IMG/VR virus record: IMGVR_UViG_3300025659_000002
Coordinates: 1-64,000 of that record
DNA length: 64,000 nucleotides
Source: a virus
Taxonomy: Duplodnaviria > Heunggongvirae > Uroviricota > Caudoviricetes
Reading direction: 5' to 3' (one strand)
In this document: positions 3,594 to 54,575 of the stretch, piece after piece
Layout: the number at the start of each line of letters is the position of its first letter
Numbering within the stretch: the stretch's first letter is position 1
The notes under the pieces: generated by a model
Told to the model about the DNA's origin: nothing
The model's database searches: none
The model's input: the letters and a program-made list of their open reading frames with translations, nothing else
Translations under genes and position numbers: made by a program

Positions 3594-3602
3594 ATAAATT
3601 AG

Positions 3603-3674
3603 AGCCTAGGGAAGGAGTTGAACCTCCATTTCTCTTAGCGGACTAAGAGCGTCTTACCATTAGACGACCACGGC
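3603..3674 (-). tRNA. tRNA-like element with 8-nt (or self-pairing) anticodon loop, anticodon region AGTCCGCT
   Basis: GCCGTGG-TC-GTCTAATGGTAAGAC-G-CTCTT-AGTCCGCT-AAGAG-AAAT-GGAGG-TTCAACT-CCTTC-CCTAGGC-T. The anticodon arm is an 18-nt perfect palindrome (7-bp stem plus 4-nt loop, or 5-bp stem plus 8-nt loop). Two acceptor-stem mismatches. Confidence 0.35.
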
Positions 3675-8565: not shown

Positions 8566-8633
8566 CAGCGCGGATTGGATTCGAACCAATGTCTAGGGTA
8601 TCCCCTAACTCTACCCTGCTGAGATACCGCCCC
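8566..8633 (-). tRNA. tRNA-like element (68 nt) with truncated anticodon arm
   Basis: GGGGCGG-TA-TCTCAGCAGGGTAGAG...ATTGG-TTCGAAT-CCAAT-CCGCGCT-G. The anticodon position holds TAGGG-GATA-CCCTA (4-nt loop). Lies between the vWA and PP2C genes. Confidence 0.35.
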
Positions 8634-11700: not shown

Positions 11701-12765
11701 TTATTCTCCAAACTTAATTAAGAAGTCAGGGTTAATTACTTTAAAACTAAAGCTACCATCTCTCGCTCTAATCACAATTCCCTCTCTTGGGATATCAGGA
11801 TTTAGAAGGCTTGGGCCTTTAGAAAGCTCTACTAATTCGTCTACTGTATGGTTTAACACCATCTTTGGATTAAGGACAGGTACAGTATTAAATATTCTAT
11901 CTAACCCTCGTACGCGAACTTCCCCCTCAGTTGTGTAGTCCCCAAATATAAGATTTAGAAAGCTCTCAATACTTCCAAAGCCACCATCTTGTATAGTAAA
12001 AGCGTTAAACATTTTTACTTCTGTAGCAGACAATTTGTATTTATTTTTCTGAATCCCTGGCCCCAGTAATTCTCCTTGGAAAATTACATTTATACCAAGT
12101 TTAGACATTTTCTCTTCTGCGTCAATATCTCTAGCGACTTTCCAGAAAGAATTTTTGTCATTCTCTATTAGGTCAAGCTTCCGACTGCATACTCCGAAAG
12201 GTGTTGCTTTTCGGTAGTTAGGTGCATAATAAAAGGTAGATGACGATCCATCTAATTTCTCTGTTATGTAGCACTCTGTTCCTGCCCATTCTTTTATTTC
12301 ATCTACAAGATTCTGTACACGTTCTTCATCCGTCTTAGGAATCCAGGAAGGTCTGTGGCCTTTAATCTGGCCACTTAAGCATGCTGGAATGGGTGCTTCA
12401 TATTTTACTACTTTCAAAAGTTCACTTACGTCTGTTCCCACTTCGGGGCCATCGGCGAGCTCTTCGAAAGTATCTAATGGCATGGCTAGCCCTTGACTAA
12501 TTTGCTTACGCAATTTTATAGTTCGTAAGCGATAACCTCTTGTGCCGTCATCTATTGTTTTGACACCGTTTTTCTTTAAGAATTCAAACGGCTCTATTTC
12601 TGGCAACAAAGAGTCCACTTCAAAGTAGACGCATTTATCACCTATTTGAAATTCCCCCTTCTTAACTACTAGATGCCAGCCTTTTACAGTTGCTTTTTCA
12701 ATTACATCTGCTCCAGAGATAGGCTCTAAATTAGCTATGAGTTGGATTGTTGCTAAATGTCTCAT
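11701..12765 (-). CDS. ATP-dependent RNA ligase (KxDG nucleotidyltransferase family)
   Basis: ITEKLDGSSSTFYY contains the ligase motif I K-x-D-G; 354 aa; adjacent to Pnk. Confidence 0.55.
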   Translation of the reverse strand: MRHLATIQLIANLEPISGADVIEKATVKGWHLVVKKGEFQIGDKCVYFEVDSLLPEIEPFEFLKKNGVKTIDDGTRGYRLRTIKLRKQISQGLAMPLDTFEELADGPEVGTDVSELLKVVKYEAPIPACLSGQIKGHRPSWIPKTDEERVQNLVDEIKEWAGTECYITEKLDGSSSTFYYAPNYRKATPFGVCSRKLDLIENDKNSFWKVARDIDAEEKMSKLGINVIFQGELLGPGIQKNKYKLSATEVKMFNAFTIQDGGFGSIESFLNLIFGDYTTEGEVRVRGLDRIFNTVPVLNPKMVLNHTVDELVELSKGPSLLNPDIPREGIVIRARDGSFSFKVINPDFLIKFGE

Positions 12766-13288: not shown

Positions 13289-13469
13289 TTGCAGCTATAC
13301 CGCCTACAGCTAAAAATAATAAGACGAAGCCAAGCCACAGCGGGGCAGTTATCCACCACCAACTCCATGTAATGACTCCAACTAACTTTAGGACAAGTAA
13401 TACTATAAATAGTATGAATCCGGGATTTTTCATTTTTTCTCCGTTTGTTTTGGTTTTAAATATTTCCAA
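13269..13469 (-). CDS. small membrane protein (66 aa)
   Basis: ORF track; two hydrophobic helices. Confidence 0.4.
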   Translation of the reverse strand: MEIFKTKTNGEKMKNPGFILFIVLLVLKLVGVITWSWWWITAPLWLGFVLLFLAVGGIAAIASWLD

Positions 13470-14503
13470 ATTAAGGGCTTTATGTTTTTCCCTTGTAACA
13501 TTGTAAATACTAAAGAAATTATTTGTTTATTTCCAATATTTATGACTTTTTCTGCTACTGCTTTGGAAGTTCGTTTTTTCATATCAATTGATTCTGGGAA
13601 ACTAGTTATAAGGTGCATGTATTGTTTACAAGCAGTGTTTGCTAATATCACATAATTCTCTCTAAAGTTATCTATAGAGGTATGAAGCCATTTATAGTAT
13701 TCATCTGGTACAATATCAATTAACTCTTGTATATCTAATTCTGGATCTGATAAGTATTTCCATACCGTTTTATCATTGCAAAGCTGCAATATACGGTGAT
13801 GTCTTACATACCAGTCAAATTTTACTTTAACTCTGAACCCGTTATCATATGCTAACACAAATCCTTCTTTGTTTTCTTGATTTGGTACATTATATAACTC
13901 ACTTACATCGCAATCATGTTCATATAGCTCTGTTCTTGGTATACAAGTAGTAACAGCGTGCAACCCTATCTCTCTGCCAGTAAACGTATCGCGTACTGCC
14001 AATAGCCTTAGGTCGCTCTCTGGGTAGGTGATACAGGTCATCCCCCCTTTCTTAAGAGTAGGTGTTAAGAACTCATAGCAGTATGTGAAGTCCTCCCTTA
14101 TAGTAAGGTCAGGGTATTTTTCTTCTAAGACTACATTGGCCTCTGTAATATATTCATTATCAAAAGAGCCTCTTGTAGATTTAATTAAATGCCCCCTCCA
14201 CATAACCATTATAAATAGACATCCGTCTAGTTTATTAAAAATGCTGTAGTGGTCATCTGGGAGCTCGATACCTAGTCCTTCTAATTCTGTATAGTTGAAA
14301 AATTTTCTAAAAGGGTTGGCTACTACAGTTCCATATTCATCTAGTATAAGACCCCTACATCTAGTAGTGGTATCGTTCCAATTTCGAGCATACTGTGTGG
14401 CATGGGTATAATTATATATCCAAAGTGGAAACTCTGGATGTTTTCTTCGCTTTACCCACCCTTCCTTTATTTGGGTTTCTAAAACTGTTAGGACTGTATT
14501 CAT
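13430..14503 (-). CDS. second KxDG nucleotidyltransferase (RNA ligase 2-like)
   Basis: FNKLDGCLFIM motif I; 357 aa; a second ligase paralog as in the T4 rnlA/rnlB arrangement. Confidence 0.5.
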   Translation of the reverse strand: MNTVLTVLETQIKEGWVKRRKHPEFPLWIYNYTHATQYARNWNDTTTRCRGLILDEYGTVVANPFRKFFNYTELEGLGIELPDDHYSIFNKLDGCLFIMVMWRGHLIKSTRGSFDNEYITEANVVLEEKYPDLTIREDFTYCYEFLTPTLKKGGMTCITYPESDLRLLAVRDTFTGREIGLHAVTTCIPRTELYEHDCDVSELYNVPNQENKEGFVLAYDNGFRVKVKFDWYVRHHRILQLCNDKTVWKYLSDPELDIQELIDIVPDEYYKWLHTSIDNFRENYVILANTACKQYMHLITSFPESIDMKKRTSKAVAEKVINIGNKQIISLVFTMLQGKNIKPLIWKYLKPKQTEKK

Positions 14504-30450: not shown

Positions 30451-31272
30451 TTATTTGGTTGTGGTGTCTGCTTTTGATACTAAATCTTCAGCACAAGGTA
30501 CATAGACTGACTCATAAGTTACTGAATCTTGTTTGTTAGCTATGTGAGCTAACCCACGCCAGGCTGCTTCAGGTAAGTTCATACATCCTAGTTTTCTGAT
30601 GGTACCGTTTTCTCTGTATCTTATGTTGTATCCGAAAAGCCTTTGAGGTTTTGGGTCTTGTAGGTGTTTGTAGTTGAACCCTGGATAGAAGAATGTGCTC
30701 TTACCCGGAATTAGGTGAGTCTCGTTCTCATACTCATCGCTGTAGTTTTTTAAGGAGTGTATTCGAAATATTGGCTCTAAATAAGAGTCCAGAGCGCTAT
30801 CGATTATTACACATAGCTCGTCATTTCCAACATTTCCAGGTATTTGAACAATATCACCTTCACAAGGAGTTGTAACTTTTGAGGGGTTGTATAGCTTTCT
30901 TATAAGATCTTTAGAAAACATAATTGATCGAGCATCTGTAGCAGAATATACTATAAATGCACCTTTCAACATTGCAAACACAAAGTCTTTAGAGCTGAAC
31001 AACACTTTAGGTACTAACTCTCTGGGGTAGTATATATTAAAGGCTGAGTGAGATAATTTAGCTCCTGAGCTATATAGTAATAGATGAGGAGTGTCTACAG
31101 ATACGCTGTCTTGTTGCATTACTGTTACAACATTATTATTGATATCAGTACATATTCGTAGATGACCTATTAACTCGTCAATGCTTTGCTGACTAGACAT
31201 AAGATAATAGAGCCTTGACATATAGTCTTCTACTGCTAGATTAGCTATTTGGGGATGGTCTTTGAGATTCAT
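30451..31272 (-). CDS. paralog family C member 1 (PCEGD motif protein, 273 aa)
   Basis: Shares the PCEGD[IV]V and RLFGYN motifs with the next two genes. Confidence 0.5.
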   Translation of the reverse strand: MNLKDHPQIANLAVEDYMSRLYYLMSSQQSIDELIGHLRICTDINNNVVTVMQQDSVSVDTPHLLLYSSGAKLSHSAFNIYYPRELVPKVLFSSKDFVFAMLKGAFIVYSATDARSIMFSKDLIRKLYNPSKVTTPCEGDIVQIPGNVGNDELCVIIDSALDSYLEPIFRIHSLKNYSDEYENETHLIPGKSTFFYPGFNYKHLQDPKPQRLFGYNIRYRENGTIRKLGCMNLPEAAWRGLAHIANKQDSVTYESVYVPCAEDLVSKADTTTK

Positions 31273-31273
31273 G

Positions 31274-31990
31274 TTATCCTTTCATTGCGTTTTTTAGAAG
31301 TAAGTCCCATAATTTGGGGTCAATATCTTGGCAACCTACATTTGATATAGCATTTCTTTCTTTATTGTAAGTTGTACAATTACTACCAAATAGAAATTTG
31401 GGAGTAGGGTCTTGTAAAAACTCACAATCTAATAGGTCTGTGTACTCTATGCCTATTTCATAATCATCTACTATTCTAGTACATCTCATCATTAGTTTAT
31501 TACCCGCTATGCAGGCGTCCAAGATCATAACCATCTCACCAGTTTTAGTTCTTACTACGTCACCTTCACAGGGTTGGTTGGTGTGGTCGCTTCGTCGTAT
31601 TTTTCTAATGAGGTTTTTTGTAAATACCCAGATTTCATCTCCGTGTAGTAATAAGTAGGCTTCTCCTATGTCGGCAACAATATAATCGTTTGTTCCATCC
31701 TTATCATAAATAATGTTAGGTATGAGGTGTTCAGGGTATGTGTAAGTTTTTAGCTTTTTGATGGGCGCGAGGTCCCCTATATGAGTTGAGTGCCAGGTTC
31801 TATAAGGCAGTTGTTGATTCATAGGGAAGCCGGGTTTAGAGAACCACATAAACACAGCACCCTCCTGAGTTCGCTGTATTGAGATGTCTTTAAGTTTAAA
31901 AGTGTTGTATCCGCTCAGAACTTCGTCATATAAATGCAGATAAGCTTGTACTAAGGATAGATGATATTTGTTAATAATATGTTGTAGCAT
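31274..31990 (-). CDS. paralog family C member 2 (238 aa)
   Basis: NQPCEGDVV, FLFGSN. Confidence 0.5.
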   Translation of the reverse strand: MLQHIINKYHLSLVQAYLHLYDEVLSGYNTFKLKDISIQRTQEGAVFMWFSKPGFPMNQQLPYRTWHSTHIGDLAPIKKLKTYTYPEHLIPNIIYDKDGTNDYIVADIGEAYLLLHGDEIWVFTKNLIRKIRRSDHTNQPCEGDVVRTKTGEMVMILDACIAGNKLMMRCTRIVDDYEIGIEYTDLLDCEFLQDPTPKFLFGSNCTTYNKERNAISNVGCQDIDPKLWDLLLKNAMKG

Positions 31991-32011: not shown

Positions 32012-32698
32012 TTAAAAATAATCGTTGTTGGCGGATTCAAGTAACACGTCCCACAAGGATTTAGTGATCCTATGACATCCAATTTGAACAATCCGGGACT
32101 GAGAACCCTCATTAGTAAATCTGGCGTGATACCCGAACAATCGAGGTGGTCTTTTGGTTTGTAAAAATTCACAAGAATTTACAAAGCTCATAGATACCTC
32201 ACGATCGTAGCCCCGAGTGGTGGCTATAGAATAATTGAAAAGATTATTATTTTCTTGAAGAGTTACATAATTTATAGTATGTGGGGTATCTTCAAATAAT
32301 ATAACATCACCTTCGCAGGGTACCAGTACTTTAGTAGGAAGGCCTATCTTACGTATCAAGTTTTTGGAAATATATATATAATCGGAAAGTTCATGATGAT
32401 ACACTAAAAAATGATTTCTAAAAGCTGCGTAAATTGCTGTACCACTTTTACTTAACACTGTAGGCTTTAATTCTTCTGGAAACTCATAATGGTGAATCGT
32501 TTTGGTAGGAGGTAAGCCTGTATAGCTACGAGAATAAGCTGTGTATTTTCCTGTAGACAACACATACCCTATCGAAACATCGCCGAATATAGTTCTCTGT
32601 ATAATAACTGGAGTATGTATGTCCCCCATTCTATGTTGCAGGGACATATATTCTTTAGCAAGTTCATATGTTAATTTGTCTGTAATAGTTTTAAGCAT
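32012..32698 (-). CDS. paralog family C member 3 (228 aa)
   Basis: LVPCEGDVI, RLFGYHARF. Confidence 0.5.
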   Translation of the reverse strand: MLKTITDKLTYELAKEYMSLQHRMGDIHTPVIIQRTIFGDVSIGYVLSTGKYTAYSRSYTGLPPTKTIHHYEFPEELKPTVLSKSGTAIYAAFRNHFLVYHHELSDYIYISKNLIRKIGLPTKVLVPCEGDVILFEDTPHTINYVTLQENNNLFNYSIATTRGYDREVSMSFVNSCEFLQTKRPPRLFGYHARFTNEGSQSRIVQIGCHRITKSLWDVLLESANNDYF

Positions 32699-32717
32699 TA
32701 CTGCTCCTTTTTATTTG

Positions 32718-32903
32718 TTAATTAGTTTCGATAAGATATTTAGCAAAATCAGATAAGCTTACGTCTTTAGGTAATTGTTTCATGTATTTAGAGATAATAA
32801 CTTTTAGTTCTAGTTCTTTGTTTGATTTTGTAGAACGTAAGGCTTTATTAATTTTGAACACAACCTCTTTATCGAAGAGATTGTTTAAATCGAATTTAGT
32901 CAA
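32718..32903 (-). CDS. hypothetical protein (61 aa)
   Basis: ORF track. Confidence 0.35.
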   Translation of the reverse strand: MTKFDLNNLFDKEVVFKINKALRSTKSNKELELKVIISKYMKQLPKDVSLSDFAKYLIETN

Positions 32904-32982
32904 TGATGGGTCTCCTGTGTATTCCAGTATTCTTATACCGGTATTTATTAAATAATGTTATAGGGTTAAATATTGTCATAGG

Positions 32983-33014
32983 TCTTATACCTACAAATTT
33001 AAGGTAAAAAAAAG
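32983..33014 (-). promoter_or_regulatory. variant copy of the recurrent promoter-like motif
   Basis: gtcttatacctacaaatttaaggtaaaaaaaag, about 75 nt upstream of the 32903 start codon. Confidence 0.35.
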
Positions 33015-34114
33015 AATACGCTTGTAAGATGGCACAGAGTGCACGGGCGTAAGGCCAATTTTTCAGGTGGCTTTCCTGGTATTCTTTTTATGGAAGATGA
33101 GAGTGGCTGAGGGGTAAACTCTTCTTCCGAGGGATGCAACTCCCTTTGCGAGACTTATTAATCCCCGCACCACCTACGTTAAGTAGGAAGCCCTATCTTA
33201 AATTCTTTTCCAAATTGAAGGCTCTAGCCTTGCAACTCCTTCGGATAGACACCCAACGTTTTTATTACGTCTTTGGCCCAGTTTTATGAAGTTTGTACTT
33301 TTCCTGAGAATACAGTTAGTACGGTATATCTTTAAAGGGATCATTTCAATTCCCCTCGTTTCCACGCAGACTTACGTCGTCGTAATACACCAATCACAGC
33401 TCCAGGTATGGAGCCAGGTCTTTCCACTTACATTAACTCTACAATTTCACGACTATCTTAGCTGCCGCCAAGCTTAACCGCTTCCTTATAAATACTGCTG
33501 CAACCCTTGCGAGGCGCAGAGCTCGACGTTATACAGGCCGATATTAGTGATCTTTTATTATAAGCAGCCAGGAATCTAATTGCTTTCATTATAAATGACG
33601 AGAATCGAACTCGTGATCTACGGATTAATATTCCGTTGCTCTACCAACTGAGCTACATTATGGTTTTTCTGTGATTGGGAGGACGCGTTCCCGGTTGTGG
33701 TTACGTAGTTTTCAGCCACATAATGCCACTCGCCCTCGTAAGTCATTAGCCATGACAGCCTCCGATCCTTCATCATAGTAGTTGTCTCTTCTTGACTTAG
33801 AAGCCAATGAAGGCCTCAATATCTTGATCCCGACAAACTATATAATTGATAACCCGCTTGACAGACAGGATATCTTGCGATTACTATACAGACATTTCTG
33901 CCTACCCCTCAGGGGATACGTATCTCGACCTTCACGCCTCGCAGTTAGCCTGGAGTGTTGGACTATTTTTTACAAGATAAATAGAAGTTCGCAGTGTATA
34001 AATGTTTGCACTCCCGAAGGAGAACAACGCAATGCCAGGTATAATTTCACAGACCCGACTGCTTTTAGTCCCATTGCTGGGGTTATCTTTAACTGGATGT
34101 CATACCACCCAGGT
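33015..34114 (-). ncRNA. GC-enriched ORF-poor island, candidate large structured ncRNA with embedded tRNA-like element
   Basis: About 1.1 kb at roughly 45% GC against about 33% background, with no convincing ORF. Bounded by promoter-like motifs at 34146 (oriented toward it) and 32983. Confidence 0.35.
33590..33662 (-). tRNA. degenerate tRNA-like element (anticodon loop ATATTAA; acceptor stem does not pair)
   Basis: CATAATG-TA-GCTCAGTTGGTAGAGC-A-ACGGA-ATATTAA-TCCGT-AGATC-ACGAG-TTCGATT-CTCGT-CATTTAT. Canonical D-, anticodon- and T-arms but unpaired acceptor arms (both sides contain ATAATG as a direct repeat). Confidence 0.35.
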
Positions 34115-34155
34115 GCTAATTAAGGCTAAGCCTTGATTGCGAAATTCTTATACCA

Positions 34156-34190
34156 GAAAATATTGTTTTTTAAAAGACATTGGGTTATAT
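34156..34190 (+). promoter_or_regulatory. sigma70-like promoter candidate (TTGTTT-17-TATATT)
   Basis: ttgttt(tttaaaagacattgggt)tatatt ends 10 nt before the ATG at 34197. Confidence 0.3.
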
Positions 34191-34196
34191 TCAAGT

Positions 34197-35696
34197 ATGG
34201 AAAGAAATTATGAAGTATTTAGAGCTAGGGTAGTTTCAGTAGAGAGTCCTGATGTAAACGCCCTAGATAAAAAAGACATATATATTCAGGCAATAGATGA
34301 GACAGATCCTGAGAAGACGTATTTGGCGTTACCTCCGATATTTATACCAACTTCTGCATTTGGGTCGGGAGTAGTATCAGTGCCTCCTGAAAATCAGGAG
34401 TGTTTGGTGGCCTTGGACAAATGAAATAATGTTGCACAGATTCTTACTTATATCCCCTCAGGACTATCTTCGGCCTTCGGCGGTTTATCTGCAGAAGCTG
34501 TACCAGAGGGGGGAGTGTTATTAAAAATAGGTGGAAAGAACAAAACTAACTTCCTAATGGCTCCAGATGGATTCTTTAGTTGGTTTTCTAACGCCTTCGC
34601 TGAAATAACTTTGGATGGAGCTTATAAGAAACTAAATATTACAACTAAACGATATGAAAGACGAAGCGCAACTAATTTTGTTAGAGACTCATATCATCCT
34701 AAGAAATCTGCAGGAATAGATAAAGGAGCTACATCACATTTAGAAGTATATTCAAAGTTTGATGATACTACTGGGTATCTTGACCATATCTCAGAAAACA
34801 CTGAGACTCACCGCAGTATTCCTTTCAAGCACCAATTCACAGATCAAACTATTATAAAGTCTGGATACATACCTCATGTTAAGAATTTAAAAGGCACGCC
34901 TTATTCCCATTTGTATCAATTAGAGACTAGACAAGCTACTGGAGGTTCTAAACAGAAGAATACCTATACTAAGTTACATCTAGGGTATCAAGGGGCTACA
35001 GATCTATTTGATATAGGAGAAGAACACCCGGCAGGTTCTTTATTTCATTGGGTATTTAAACGAGCAGTAACAAATAATAATAGCTCAATGATAAATAGAT
35101 TTGGGAAATTAGAGTCCGGGAGTTTAGCGGGAGAGTTATATAGACATCAAATATATGATGGAACTTTTGATGCTACAGCCTGGAAAGCTGGGCAAGGTTA
35201 CGATTATACTTTTATCAACACCGGAATTAAACAGCAATATGTAAGTAGTTTTGGCAAGTTAAACACGGGTAGAATATGAGGAAGACACATCCATCAGCTA
35301 GAAACCACAACTAATGGTAAAATGTATACTAAAGAGTTTGGCGGTACAGATATATTAAAGACAACAGTGCAGTCCGGGGATGTTGCAACTCCAGAGTTGA
35401 AATTGACAAAGACGTTAAATAATGAGGCATACACTGTTAAACTGAATCTAGGAGATACTACTCTTACTATAACTTTGGATAGCAGCGGAATAACTCTTGA
35501 CGTGCCTGAAGGTAAAAATGTGTATCTCGGAGGCTCAGAGGGTCAGACGTTAGTTACTAAAGAGTTTGTTACAGAATTATACGCGGGACATACACATGGT
35601 ACAGGAGTGGGACCTTCGTCACCTCCAATAATTCAGCCAAGTATTTATGATCCTTTGGATGAGAATATTTATACTGTGAAGACTTTATCAGAATAA
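34197..35696 (+). CDS. baseplate central spike / VgrG-gp5-like protein (OB-fold N-terminus, beta-helix with HTH motif), containing in-frame TGA
   Basis: ORFs 34137..34424, 34515..35279 and 35322..35696 share one frame and are separated only by TGA at 34422 and 35277. Reading through gives ALDKWNNVAQ and TGRIWGRHIH. N-terminal FRARVVSV...GSGVVSVPPENQECLVAL resembles the gp5/VgrG OB fold; C-terminal YAGHTHGTGVGP is HxH-like. Ends TAA. Confidence 0.55.
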
Positions 35697-36306: not shown

Positions 36307-38496
36307 TTGGAGATAATAATGGACAACTTATTTATAAAGAACTCTTTTACTAAAACAGCGTCATACTCAGTGGATATGGACGCAACGAAGTGGGTTAGAA
36401 ATGTAATTACGTATTTTTACGAACAATATCCGTTCGCTCAAAATCAGCCTGCAGTGGTTCAGTGGAAGAAAAAAGATAGTACAAAGGGATATGCGGTAGG
36501 GGTATTAAAGATATCCGGGGCATCCATACCAGTAGTAATCAAAGATTGGAAATTATCTCCTTTAGACATAGTTATGGCAGGTGGAAGAACTTTACCACTT
36601 AATACTGAGGTGTTAAGAACTATGTTAACTTCGCCAGGAGCATTTGTAGGAGTAGCGTCGTCTCCTCCTAAATCAGGACTGGACATGTTCTCACAATTAC
36701 AGTATTCTCCTGATGGGAGTATAAACAATTCAGCTAGCGAGTCTAGTTCACAAGAACGACCTGCTAAAATAGCTTCATTTATTGACAAAATTGAGCATAT
36801 AGACAAAAAAGCCGTTGTTGAAATACTAAATACTGTTAAAAACAACCCAGAAATCCATAATAACTTCAAAAAGACCGGAAGATTAGACGTTTTAGACAAA
36901 CTAGCGTCAAAAACAGAGAGTCAAGAAGAAATCGTGGATTCTTTCATTAGGGACCTTGATATAGATAGACAGTTAGTTATTAAAGACTCTTTAGGTAATC
37001 ACACAGTTAAACAAGCTAATTCTAACATAGATTTTGTATGAGAACTCCCTATTAAGGCTTCAGAAGCTGAAGAATTTGAGATATTAACTGCTTCAAGTTT
37101 CCAAGAAAAGACTGCTGAGTCTGTAGATGCTAATTGCTACAAGATTTGGGACACTGATAGACACCTTATGGTAACATCGGACAAAGATTATCATGATTTT
37201 AGTAGAAATGATGTGAAAACGGCTGAAGCATTTACTTTAGAAGAAGACCAACCACAAGTTGGTGATCTTGGCGTTTGAAAATTTGGAGAATCAGTCTCTG
37301 AACCTTTTGAAGTACTAGGAATGGACAAAGTATCGTCATATTCTTCAAATCTTTATAAACTAGACGGAGGTCCAGGGTATCTTAGCATCAGTAAGAATAA
37401 AGATTGGGTTATTTTAGAGAAATTAGGACAAAAGTCTTCAGAAAATGTAGAAATAGACGGAGATTTTCCTAAAATAGGAGATTTCGGAGCGTGAGTTATG
37501 CCTGATGGCAGTGCCACTAAGCCTTTTGAGATTAGAGAACTATTACAAGACTTAGAAGCTTCTAGCAATAAACAAGTACAAGTAGCAGGTTGGGATGGAT
37601 TGCAGAAGATTGCGTATTACCTGACTGAAATGCCTGTTAAGAGTCTGATGGACTCAGAGAATGGCGGAAAGTTACTACCTAAAGAAGCAAAGTTTGTTAA
37701 ATTAGGCAAAGAATTAAGAAAAGTTTCTGAAGTTAGCGAGGATAATCAAGATACCCCATTAAAAGTTACAGGATGGGCCGGAAGAGAAAAAGTATCTTAT
37801 TACATCGACAACACAACTACTTCTGAAGCAAAATATGTAGAAAAAGAATCTAGTTGGTATTTATCTAAGGACGTGAGCTTCATTAAGCTAGGATCATACT
37901 TACAAAATGAAATACCACATACTGTTAAAGTAAATAAACACACAGTTGGAAAAGACTCTGTAGGCCTTTATTACTTAAAAGGTGCAGAGTTCTCTAAATA
38001 TGCAGAAAACAGCCATGAATTACGTGATTTAAGCCTCTCAGAGGCAGAATGATCATTAATTCATTGTGGAGCAACCAAGACTGATATAAATAAGGCGGCA
38101 ATGTTGCTGAAAGGCACTGAAATGCTAATTGCTTGTCCAATTGAAGCTCCTATACCTCCAAAAGTGTTTATTGATAAAATAGCAGAAACTTATGAAGATA
38201 GTACTAATGACATAGAGATGTTAAAAGTAGACTTAGTAAAAGAGGCTGCGGTTTTATCTGATAAAAGCACTGTAGATGCTGTATTGTCTCTTGGAGCTAT
38301 CAACAAACAGAATATTATAGAATACATAGCTCTATTACCTCAATATGAGATGATTATGAGTGAATTAGCCAAAATGCTGCTTATGACTAGGTTAGGTATG
38401 AGGCATCTTCCGGAGGAAGCCGTAAAGAACGCCATGGATTCAGTAACTAAAATAGTACTGTTGCTTATGGGCGTTAACAAACTGTACTCTAATTAG
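36307..38496 (+). CDS. large structural-module protein (about 729 aa) with four in-frame TGA
   Basis: ORFs 36307..37041, 37498..38052 and 38101..38496 are in one frame. In-frame TGAs at about 37039, 37276, 37492 and 38050 in the contexts NIDFVWELP, GDLGVWKFGE, GDFGAWVMPDG and SEAEWSLIH. Ends TAG at 38494. Strong RBS aattggagataataATG. Confidence 0.55.
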
Positions 38497-47582: not shown

Positions 47583-47612
47583 TCTTATACCCTTTTTAAG
47601 GTAAAAAAAAGA
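47583..47612 (-). promoter_or_regulatory. recurrent promoter-like motif copy
   Basis: cttcttataccctttttaaggtaaaaaaaag, 44 nt upstream of the 47539 start. Confidence 0.45.
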
Positions 47613-53106: not shown

Positions 53107-53319
53107 CTAAAAATTGCCAGACCTCGTAATTTTTACAAAGCGTCTAGGTACTGTGATATAGGAGTCTCTCATATTTTTTTCTTCATGAAAGTCTTCCATC
53201 TCTGCAAAAGTGTGGCCAGGGCCGCCAGGACTTCCGCCAGATACCTTTAATTTTCCATTGTGCTTAATTAGTGCATCTACACGTTCTTCAACTGTTAATG
53301 TAATTTTTTTGCGTATCAT
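53107..53319 (-). CDS. hypothetical protein (70 aa)
   Basis: ORF track; motif copy immediately after the stop (53097). Confidence 0.4.
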   Translation of the reverse strand: MIRKKITLTVEERVDALIKHNGKLKVSGGSPGGPGHTFAEMEDFHEEKNMRDSYITVPRRFVKITRSGNF

Positions 53320-53337
53320 AAATACACTCCTTTCTGT

Positions 53338-53637
53338 TTATTCAAATCCTAGCGCTAAAAGGCGTTGATCCTTTTCTGGAGCTACATAATTAGCTTCAGG
53401 TAGAAGCTCCACCAAAACATCTACAAAAGCGTGAATGGTTTGGTCAGCAGCGGCGACGCCGCGTTCGAGCCAGGCATCAAGCACCTCTTGTCGATATTTA
53501 TATTCTGAATTTTGTAAGCATATAGCTGTGATCTCATGCCAGACTTTCCCACCGATGTGCTTTTCTCGTCTATATCCCAGCCGTACTGTGATTACAAAAT
53601 CATATCCTTTATAGTGAAAGTCTTTCACCATATCCAT
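53338..53637 (-). CDS. hypothetical protein (99 aa)
   Basis: ORF track. Confidence 0.45.
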   Translation of the reverse strand: MDMVKDFHYKGYDFVITVRLGYRREKHIGGKVWHEITAICLQNSEYKYRQEVLDAWLERGVAAADQTIHAFVDVLVELLPEANYVAPEKDQRLLALGFE

Positions 53638-53639
53638 AG

Positions 53640-54077
53640 TTAATTGCTCCTCATAAGTTTGTTGTTAAAAATTGCTATTGCCTTACACGATAACCCATCT
53701 GCAAACAGTATCGCCACCGCCCACACCTCGGGCAATCTCCTGGGACGGCCAGGTCACTCTCAGACTGTGTTGTCGGGGGTATAATTACCATAAGCCGGCT
53801 GAGTCCTCGCTGCGTCCCATGTTTAAATTTGTGCGAGAGAGGGTCGTGTGATGACAAAATCACCGCCCGTATCCCGCATTTTTGTTGGCCCCTACCGTAG
53901 AGTAGGTTTGCCGCCAACGGCTCGTGTTTTATATTAGCTTAGCTTTCTCCGTGCAGAGTGCCTACGTTACTAATATTAGAGAAGACATTCTGTCAAGAAT
54001 GCCCAGCAGTCCACATTAACCCCTCTCTATGACGCCATAGGAGCGGCCTCTCCTGCATTAAGGTCTCTCTATTAGAC
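53640..54077 (-). ncRNA. GC-rich intergenic island, candidate structured RNA
   Basis: About 440 nt at roughly 50% GC between two minus-strand genes. The only ORF (53675..53917) has an atypical composition (GC-rich, few Lys) for this genome. Confidence 0.3.
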
Positions 54078-54575
54078 CTATTTTGCTGTAAATTGAAATG
54101 GTTCAAATGGTGATCCAATAACCATGTTTGCTTTATCTAAAGGTAGAGTTTCCGTTAACTCATGAGTAAGGTCGCCTTCATTCTTATAAATAAAGGAGTA
54201 CTCGAGTTCTCCAAATTCTTCATGAGAATATAAAGTGACTAAGAAAACCTTATCACCTGTTGGAGGAAAAGTCATCCAAGTTCCTACGCCTCTGCATACT
54301 CCATCAACGACTGCGGCTAACTTACCACCCTCGGCTATATTAAAATCTTCTTCAGACAGTTCGGCCATCAAAGCGTGATTGTACTCATAGGCATGCTTGT
54401 TGACTATAAATAATGGATTAATTTCTTCTGGGGCAACTATAGGTTGTATTTTTTTTAGAGAAGCTTTTCTCTTTCTATTAGCAGCCTGCTTAGCTTTAGC
54501 CCTAGCTATTCTGTCTTGTAAACTTACGTTTCTTTTTCTAGAAGAAGCCGTTTTTATTGGTTTACTGGGTTTCAT
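54078..54575 (-). CDS. hypothetical protein with basic N-terminus (165 aa)
   Basis: ORF track; KR-rich N-terminal 45 residues. Confidence 0.45.
   Translation of the reverse strand: MKPSKPIKTASSRKRNVSLQDRIARAKAKQAANRKRKASLKKIQPIVAPEEINPLFIVNKHAYEYNHALMAELSEEDFNIAEGGKLAAVVDGVCRGVGTWMTFPPTGDKVFLVTLYSHEEFGELEYSFIYKNEGDLTHELTETLPLDKANMVIGSPFEPFQFTAK

Follow-up and report, generated by a model that had tools for sequence, protein, structure and literature searches.

A predicted divergent GOLLD-family RNA with a tRNA-like element in its variable linker, from a phage

Introduction

What is specified by 1.1 kb of phage DNA that stands out from its surroundings by its high GC content and that has room for no credible gene? 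Such an island lies at 33015-34114 of the window (by which we mean the whole stretch of DNA that was analysed, 64,000 nucleotides in length), and the gene content of the window, with its RNA ligases, a helicase and at least 13 tRNA genes, suggests that it is part of a large uncultured phage. A first reading of the sequence, referred to below as the original prediction, had suggested that the island specifies a large structured non-coding RNA of the GOLLD or ROOL type, arranged around a degenerate tRNA. GOLLD is among the largest and most elaborate RNAs of bacteria and phages. Here, we propose that the island specifies a divergent member of the GOLLD family, and we weigh this proposal against the other readings that the locus allows.

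Results

Composition and coding content of the island

The GC content of the island is 44.0%, compared with 32.9% in the 1.1 kb to its left, 36.9% in the 1.1 kb to its right and 36.9% as the mean of the window, which makes it the highest-GC stretch of 1100 nt in the entire 64 kb (standard deviation 2.3 points). The shift from about 33% to about 45% GC that first drew attention to the locus is thus confirmed by measurement. The accompanying claim that it contains no credible ORF holds as well: the longest ORF inside it (113 amino acids, 33782-34123, plus strand) runs antisense to the RNA proposed here and had no match in a Pfam search, and reading TGA as a sense codon adds one extra frame only, of 108 amino acids.

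Could the island still be a protein-coding region, or a replication origin, that has been mistaken for an RNA? Short ORFs of up to 113 amino acids are the only ones that exist, and they lack Pfam matches. An origin is opposed by the composition of the island, where GC goes up and not down and where there are neither iterons nor AT-rich repeats. Against both stands the strong match to an RNA family described in the next section. We give next to no credence to this possibility and treat the island as an RNA gene.

Elsewhere in the window there is a second GC peak (53200-54450) that at 43.8% comes close to the GOLLD island; its only ORFs are small ones on the minus strand (70-165 amino acids), and an Rfam search of it at E-values of up to 1 gave no match.

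Homology to the GOLLD 3' domain

When searched by E-value, the Rfam model of GOLLD (RF02032) aligns over model positions 1-416 of 416 to 33301-33738 on the minus strand, with a score of 124.8 bits and an E-value of 4.9e-34 in a local search of 1.7 kb, or 1.8e-32 in a search of the whole window on both strands with all 4227 families. This portion of the island, which makes up about 440 nt of its central and 3' parts, is homologous to the conserved 3' domain of GOLLD, and we consider the assignment of the island RNA to the GOLLD family to be well supported. Since the score falls below the curated gathering cut-off of Rfam for this family (150 bits, an operational threshold for annotation and not a structural feature), a routine scan misses the match, and in gathering mode Rfam shows the tRNA only. 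Such a default scan would seem to deliver the missing Rfam hit that the original prediction had named as evidence against itself, but the search by E-value returns GOLLD.

The screen with large-RNA models that had been suggested as a check was therefore positive for GOLLD and negative for ROOL and the rest. The ROOL model gave no match at E-values of up to 10 in 32700-34400, nor at up to 0.05 in the whole window, so that the island RNA is not a ROOL; besides GOLLD and tRNA, all other Rfam families were without a match in the island in a local search at E-values of up to 10. Of the two types of large RNA envisaged around a tRNA, it is thus GOLLD that is borne out, both by the full-length match and by the hit with a second model described below. 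The accession that had been quoted for GOLLD, RF01998, is wrong and should read RF02032.

How much of the GOLLD structure has been kept? Parsing the Rfam alignment pair by pair showed that 12 of the 98 model pairs are deleted and that 74 of the 86 retained ones are standard pairs, with 32 of the retained pairs differing from the consensus on both sides and still pairing. The deletions include one whole hairpin of 4 bp, and two further hairpins are weak. Within the central multi-helix domain (Table 1), the 10-bp closing helix keeps 9 of its 10 pairs, with 6 doubly changed relative to the consensus, and one of the small hairpins that the consensus has at its internal three-way junction, with the loop GCAA, is deleted. 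None of the conserved unpaired motifs is missing, and they follow one another in the expected order and in register: AAAGCAA, CUAAU, CUCGCAAGG, GAGU, GUGGA.A, the loop GGGGAA...AU.AUCCC, then AAAG and, at the end, the loop UGUAUUCUCAG. In addition, the alignment and a motif check place the A-rich first loop, the GNRA tetraloop and the UGUA.UCUCA loop in register. By analogy with their use in GOLLD, these motifs and loops are putative tertiary-contact elements of the island RNA. Helix names follow the published numbering, which was mapped onto the island by inference from text only (the first hairpin, for example, being P13/P14).

Table 1. Features of the island and its boundaries, in the 5' to 3' direction of the proposed RNA
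Feature	Position	Strand	Description
Promoter motif GGTATAAGA	34146-34154	-	-10-like TATAAG inside; predicted RNA start near 34140
5' part of RNA, ~400 nt	33739..34140	-	43.5% GC; position and size of the GOLLD 5' domain
First long hairpin of GOLLD 3' domain	33678..33738	-	Rfam alignment; A-rich loop UGAAAA; 18/21 retained pairs standard, 5 changed on both sides
Variable linker J13/15	33567..33677	-	Rfam alignment; houses the tRNA-like element, with conserved AAAGCAA at its end
tRNA-like element (pseudo-tRNA)	33590..33661	-	Rfam tRNA 58.7 bits; within linker J13/15
Central multi-helix domain	33425..33566	-	Closed by 10-bp helix, 33557-33566 with 33425-33434; holds CUAAU and CUCGCAAGG
3'-terminal helices P22 to P27	33301..33424	-	GUAA tetraloop; motifs GUGGAAA, GGGGAA..AUGAUCCC, UAAAGA, UGUAUUCUCAG
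GC-rich 3' extension, ~210 nt	33090..33300	-	44.1% GC
Terminator-like element	33006..33089	-	11-bp stem, 33079-33089 with 33009-33019, closing 59 nt, then U8 (33006-33013)

The second model, R1, is a covariance model of the ~127 nt at the 3' end of 35 GOLLDs, a diverse set from public contigs from which the sequence of the window was excluded. It has a single hit in the 64-kb window, at 33300-33432 on the minus strand (42.5 bits, E = 3.9e-7). In the 41-sequence R1 alignment, the proportion of cells that pair is 94.9%, and changes on both sides are seen in 23 of the 28 pairs; the observed covariation values were matched by none of 500 shuffles, and slid structures also remained far below them. 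The island sequence itself keeps 23 of the 28 R1 pairs, and other divergent members keep 22-23. A covariation analysis had likewise been put forward with the original prediction, and its outcome is that the GOLLD 3' helices covary, in the 3'-terminal region and in an alignment that includes no close relatives.

The predicted transcription unit

The motif GGTATAAGA occurs in 15 exact copies in the window, all of them on the minus strand, against a chance expectation of ~0.5 (128,000 positions / 4^9), and most copies sit upstream of minus-strand genes. One of the 15 is the promoter-like motif that the original prediction had located at 34146 and read as oriented towards the minus strand, and that observation stands. 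The minus-strand sites include 22689, 32931, 32983, 34146, 40233, 47583, 47894, 48186, 51118 and 57922. At the opposite end of the island, the terminator-like element has a fold z-score of -2.75 and is directly followed by a promoter cassette, ACCTTAAA...GGTATAAGA, at 32983-32991. From the promoter motif at 34146 and the terminator-like hairpin, we predict a unit of ~1.13 kb that runs from ~34140 to ~33006.

The arrangement of T-run, ACCTTAAA and promoter recurs at 47583, 47894 and 51118. More generally, a hairpin, a T-run and ACCTTAAA often stand before GGTATAAGA, and together they probably represent a terminator-promoter cassette of the minus-strand (early-looking) genes.

Upstream of the 3' domain, the 5' part has a fold z-score of -2.16, with none of 100 shuffles being as stable, and a GC excess of ~+6.6 points, alongside a mean of +6.9 in 82 other GOLLD loci. 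Searched with a profile of 85 lake-type 5' domains, the 5' part gave no hit. Nine other divergent GOLLDs are likewise without a match to the lake-type 5' profile, which agrees with the lower conservation that has been published for the GOLLD 5' domain (P1-P12) relative to the 3' domain.

Downstream of the 3' domain, the GC-rich 3' extension has no homologue in Rfam (E up to 10) or with a profile of the downstream region of other GOLLDs. The equivalent 290 nt past 82 other GOLLDs are at background GC, and only 10% of them reach +6 points. Its folding is of ordinary stability (z-score -0.92 for 33000-33300, a stretch that includes the terminator-like hairpin). Two candidates for long-range pairing between the 5' part and the extension were rejected. 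Perfect 10-nt complements do occur, and by our estimate ~1 perfect 10-mer is expected by chance in 1.35 kb; the 9-bp helix that joins the two regions in the minimum-energy fold has one arm that is a UUCG hairpin on its own.

Does the extension belong to the same RNA? One option is that there are two elements, namely a GOLLD of ~840 nt (34140-33301) and, in 33006-33300, a separate element consisting of decayed tRNA genes or an unrelated small RNA. In support of this, 28 of 129 other motif-matched loci (~118 of which are true GOLLDs) have a tRNA, mostly tRNA-Met, 12-66 nt past the 3' end, ARAGORN at a relaxed threshold draws a poor cloverleaf at 33120-33190 on the minus strand, and a GAGUUGCA-type motif occurs twice in the extension. 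However, the stretch from 33301 to 33090 contains neither a promoter motif nor a terminator, the extension has no tRNA or other Rfam match at E-values of up to 10, and the cloverleaf, a very poor call that we did not accept as a degenerate second tRNA, is mismatched in every stem. We regard a two-element arrangement as unlikely, if worth some weight, and retain a single unit of ~1.13 kb as our preferred reading.

The tRNA-like element in the linker

ARAGORN makes no call on the tRNA-like element, the relaxed threshold included. It has perfect D, anticodon and T arms and standard elbow nucleotides; the original prediction had described the arms of its degenerate tRNA in the same way. The further description of the acceptor ends as unpaired was close to right: the acceptor stem is slipped, with 4 of its 7 pairs in register, or 6 if one U is bulged, nearly all of them A-U, and one position is missing in the Rfam alignment. 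The stem is not formed when the element is folded alone. The anticodon loop, AUAUUAA, yields the anticodon AUU; the discriminator is A73 and there is no CCA.

Where might the element have come from? It is 72% identical to the tRNA-Asn(GUU) of the phage, compared with 51-62% to the other tRNAs of the phage, and its hits among GenBank phages are mostly tRNA-Asn. Asparaginyl-tRNA synthetase requires G34 and G73, and to our knowledge an A34 anticodon is almost unknown outside tRNA-Arg in bacteria. For these reasons, we read the element as a pseudo-tRNA derived from tRNA-Asn. The L-shaped fold, and not the ability to decode, appears to be what is maintained in it. With its slipped acceptor, its AUU anticodon, A73 and no CCA, the element is presumably not a decoding tRNA. 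Given that every elbow feature is nonetheless kept, it would most likely serve as a folded module or cargo in the cage that GOLLDs form, or as a handle by which a tRNA-binding factor takes hold, and not as a tRNA for release into translation.

The position of the element within the RNA also has precedents. It lies 77 nt into the GOLLD match, and the embedded tRNAs of two other GOLLDs, L166 and L117, lie at 85 nt and 67 nt respectively, which points to the same insertion site in all three. Across the 129 motif-matched loci, ARAGORN called a tRNA within the linker in just one. Phage tRNAs have been reported to occur sometimes in the GOLLD linker, which faces the interior of the cage (PMC12286853, PMC12990946).

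Might the element instead be cut out of the RNA? Excision by RNase P and 3' processing could free an unusual tRNA(AUU) for the frequent codon AAU, or could split the RNA into two pieces that remain assembled. This would accord with the Rfam tRNA score of 58.7 bits and with a T arm, a D arm and elbow nucleotides that are all intact. It would also accord with the codon usage of the phage, in which AAU is the preferred Asn codon (204 vs 105), and with published speculation on an "inhibited storage" of linker tRNAs (PMC12990946). The acceptor stem argues against it, since no more than 4 of its 7 pairs form in register (6 if a bulge is allowed), nearly all of them are A-U, and the stem is absent when the element is folded by itself. 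So do the nucleotides at positions 34 and 73, which are both A in the element and which the synthetase for Asn needs to be G, and the fact that the phage already owns a normal tRNA-Asn(GUU). A further argument comes from the GOLLD of M. aubagnense, where an embedded pseudo-tRNA gave no detected separate product (PMC6582537). On balance, we think excision quite unlikely, and favour a pseudo-tRNA that stays within the RNA.

Divergence and relatives

Scored with the Rfam GOLLD model, typical GOLLDs of the lake and marine type, taken from IMG/VR and JGI metagenomes, reach 240-338 bits, the mycobacterial copy L166 reaches 221 bits, and L117, a copy from IMG/VR with an embedded tRNA-Leu, reaches 191 bits. 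The island follows at 124.8 bits, and below it comes L184, a reduced copy in a Saprospiraceae MAG, at 102 bits and thus also under the cut-off of 150. With a profile of 89 GOLLD 3' domains, the island scores 24 bits, other full-length divergent lineages 59-96 bits and typical members ~340 bits. Hence the island is among the most divergent GOLLD copies seen, yet within a continuum.

Searches of IMG/VR, JGI metagenomes, GTDB genomes, GenBank phages and the protein collection brought up nothing closely related to the phage or to the RNA, and a comparison of the neighbouring proteins with IMG/VR returned nothing. A protein without a family match, which from its sequence we take to be baseplate hub- or spike-like, has three hits only among 5.8 billion proteins, at 21-32% identity, and no GOLLD occupies the corresponding junction in the contigs of these hits. 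When viral, metagenome and genome collections were scanned for DNA motifs, the scans recovered ~120 other GOLLDs, together with chance matches, and none of these ~120 is similar to the island sequence beyond short motifs. GenBank phages match the island at its tRNA part only and do not match the flanking 10 kb; the nearest helicase matches, in Pseudanabaena phage PA-SR01 and Salmonella phage Arash, are ~35% identical. With no close relative at hand, comparative support is confined to the 3' domain.

A different kind of intergenic region was seen in L011 (9207-10000; also in L012-L014), contigs with the nearest, if distant, relatives of the baseplate-hub-like gene. There, the corresponding divergent junction holds an AT-rich, ORF-free gap of 794 nt with repeated GTGACCAC and GGTGGTCCAG, which is not a GOLLD.

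Is the island, then, the remnant of a GOLLD, a once-functional gene that is eroding along with its linker tRNA and is no longer active? The score below the cut-off would fit such decay, as would the loss of one hairpin and the weakening of two, the tRNA devoid of acceptor pairing and of a normal anticodon, and the lack of special stability in the 3' extension. Set against this, 86% of the retained pairs still pair, many by way of double changes relative to the consensus, the conserved loops and junction motifs are all intact, and three tRNA arms are perfect in spite of an identity of only 72% to the nearest paralogue. Moreover, the GC content stays 7 points over background across the whole 1.1 kb, the gene has its own promoter motif, and a comparable degree of divergence or reduction is seen in other accepted GOLLD lineages (191 bits for L117 and 102 bits for L184). 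Finally, it is rare for a phage genome to retain as much as 1.1 kb of functionless DNA. Decay is therefore very improbable in our view, and we interpret the low score as that of a divergent GOLLD.

Other observations on the phage

Two RNA ligase genes are present on the minus strand, at 11701-12765 and 13430-14503, one belonging to phrog_968 (an RNA-ligase family) and one to a family annotated as "RNA ligase and tail fiber protein attachment catalyst". Two RNA ligases and at least 13 tRNA genes suggest that the phage is under pressure from host defences that cleave tRNAs. Among its tRNA-related sequences are two unusual ones on the minus strand. The first, at 8566-8633, was recognised by a sensitive Rfam scan only (tRNA, 37.6 bits), being missed by ARAGORN and the default Rfam scan, and folds as a cloverleaf with a 4-nt GAUA loop in place of the 7-nt anticodon loop. 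The second, a tRNA at 3602-3674, has a 6-nt anticodon loop, for which ARAGORN gives the anticodon "cc" and assigns no amino acid, and an Rfam tRNA score of 38.3 bits.

On the plus strand, within 34197-35696 and 36307-38496, neighbouring late-gene ORFs lie in frame with nothing but TGA between them. The baseplate-hub-like gene contains two TGAs, and a homologue of 645 amino acids aligns straight through both; the next large gene contains four, and two of these take up an identical place within an internal repeat (GDLGV*K and GDFGA*V). Treating TGA as a sense codon joins no genes on the minus strand, and no tRNA(UCA) was found in the window by ARAGORN or the Rfam scan. This looks like a recoding of TGA that is limited to the late genes.

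Just downstream of the RNA, the minus strand carries three tandem paralogues (30451-31272, 31274-31990 and 32012-32698) with LIRK(I/L) and PCEGD motifs in common; the copy tested had no Pfam or PHROG match.

Discussion

What form might the RNA of this island take? We propose that the island would be expressed as one non-coding RNA of ~1.13 kb from the minus strand, a divergent member of GOLLD with a phage-type promoter motif and a terminator-like end; a tRNA-derived element is inserted in its variable linker. Cryo-EM of other members has established that GOLLDs form closed homo-oligomeric cages (PMC12286853, PMC12990946). If the island RNA resembles these, it would fold into a 5' "cap" and a 3' "ring" domain, and 10 to 14 copies would self-assemble into a closed cage by means of loop-loop and A-minor contacts, with the linker directed into the lumen. 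By analogy with the other members, the island RNA should therefore be found in a multi-copy cage with the pseudo-tRNA inside it.

A bolder reading takes the island as the first example of an extended subclass of GOLLD, ~1.13 kb in length, in which a new 5' cap and an added structured 3' domain accompany a phage with apparently TGA-recoded late genes. The lumen would then hold 10-14 non-decoding tRNA mimics, perhaps as a decoy or sponge for a host factor that targets tRNAs, such as an anticodon nuclease. The decoy or sponge would fit the two RNA ligases and the large tRNA set of the phage. Taken as a whole, this reading seems doubtful to us, and we return to the plainer one of a divergent GOLLD.

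What does a divergent GOLLD add to our understanding of the family? As this copy lies under the standard annotation threshold, family surveys that apply the Rfam cut-off undercount lineages of its kind. A 3' ring domain that is kept beside an apparently unrelated 5' part fits the published view of domains that evolve separately. In turn, a linker tRNA with a preserved elbow and with an altered acceptor and anticodon argues for retention on account of its fold and not of its decoding, which bears on the idea of tRNA storage. The existing picture of the GOLLD family is left unchanged by this copy.

Comparison with known systems

ROOL is, like the island RNA, a large phage RNA that forms cages and is found near tRNA genes, and differs in that its model has no match in the island at E-values of up to 10. 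The closer comparisons are within GOLLD itself. With the lake and marine members (RF02032; env-38, a 14-mer cage by cryo-EM), the island shares the full set of 3'-domain helices and junction motifs, whose order is unchanged, as well as a variable linker that follows the first hairpin, some 400 nt of 5' sequence, a GC excess over the surroundings, and its origin in a phage with a genome rich in tRNA genes. In contrast to them, it lacks primary-sequence similarity beyond short motifs, its 5' part has no detectable relation to their well-conserved 5' domain, and it is without one branch of the three-way junction. Their tRNA stands just downstream, whereas that of the island is inside the linker, and the island alone of the two has an extra GC-rich 3' extension of ~210 nt (~295 nt with the terminator hairpin).

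The GOLLD of Streptococcus agalactiae, with a length of 700 nt, assembles into a 12-mer cage, or into a 10-mer when the 3' domain is taken alone. Compared by published description only, it has a single arm on the junction helix P21 instead of two (PMC12990946), and the island is likewise without one small hairpin.

Mycobacterial GOLLDs (M. aubagnense, M. abscessus; L166) resemble the island in having a tRNA or pseudo-tRNA at the same linker site (PMC6582537, PMC12990946) and in being without the lake-type 5' domain. They differ in their higher score (221 bits), in being GC-rich, and in their chromosomal or plasmid-borne location inside arrays of at least 30 tRNA genes, whereas the nearest other tRNA gene to the island is 14 kb off. 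Thus, since elements of this kind have been described before, as have tRNAs and indeed a pseudo-tRNA in the linker, the island copy is a new divergent member of a known family.
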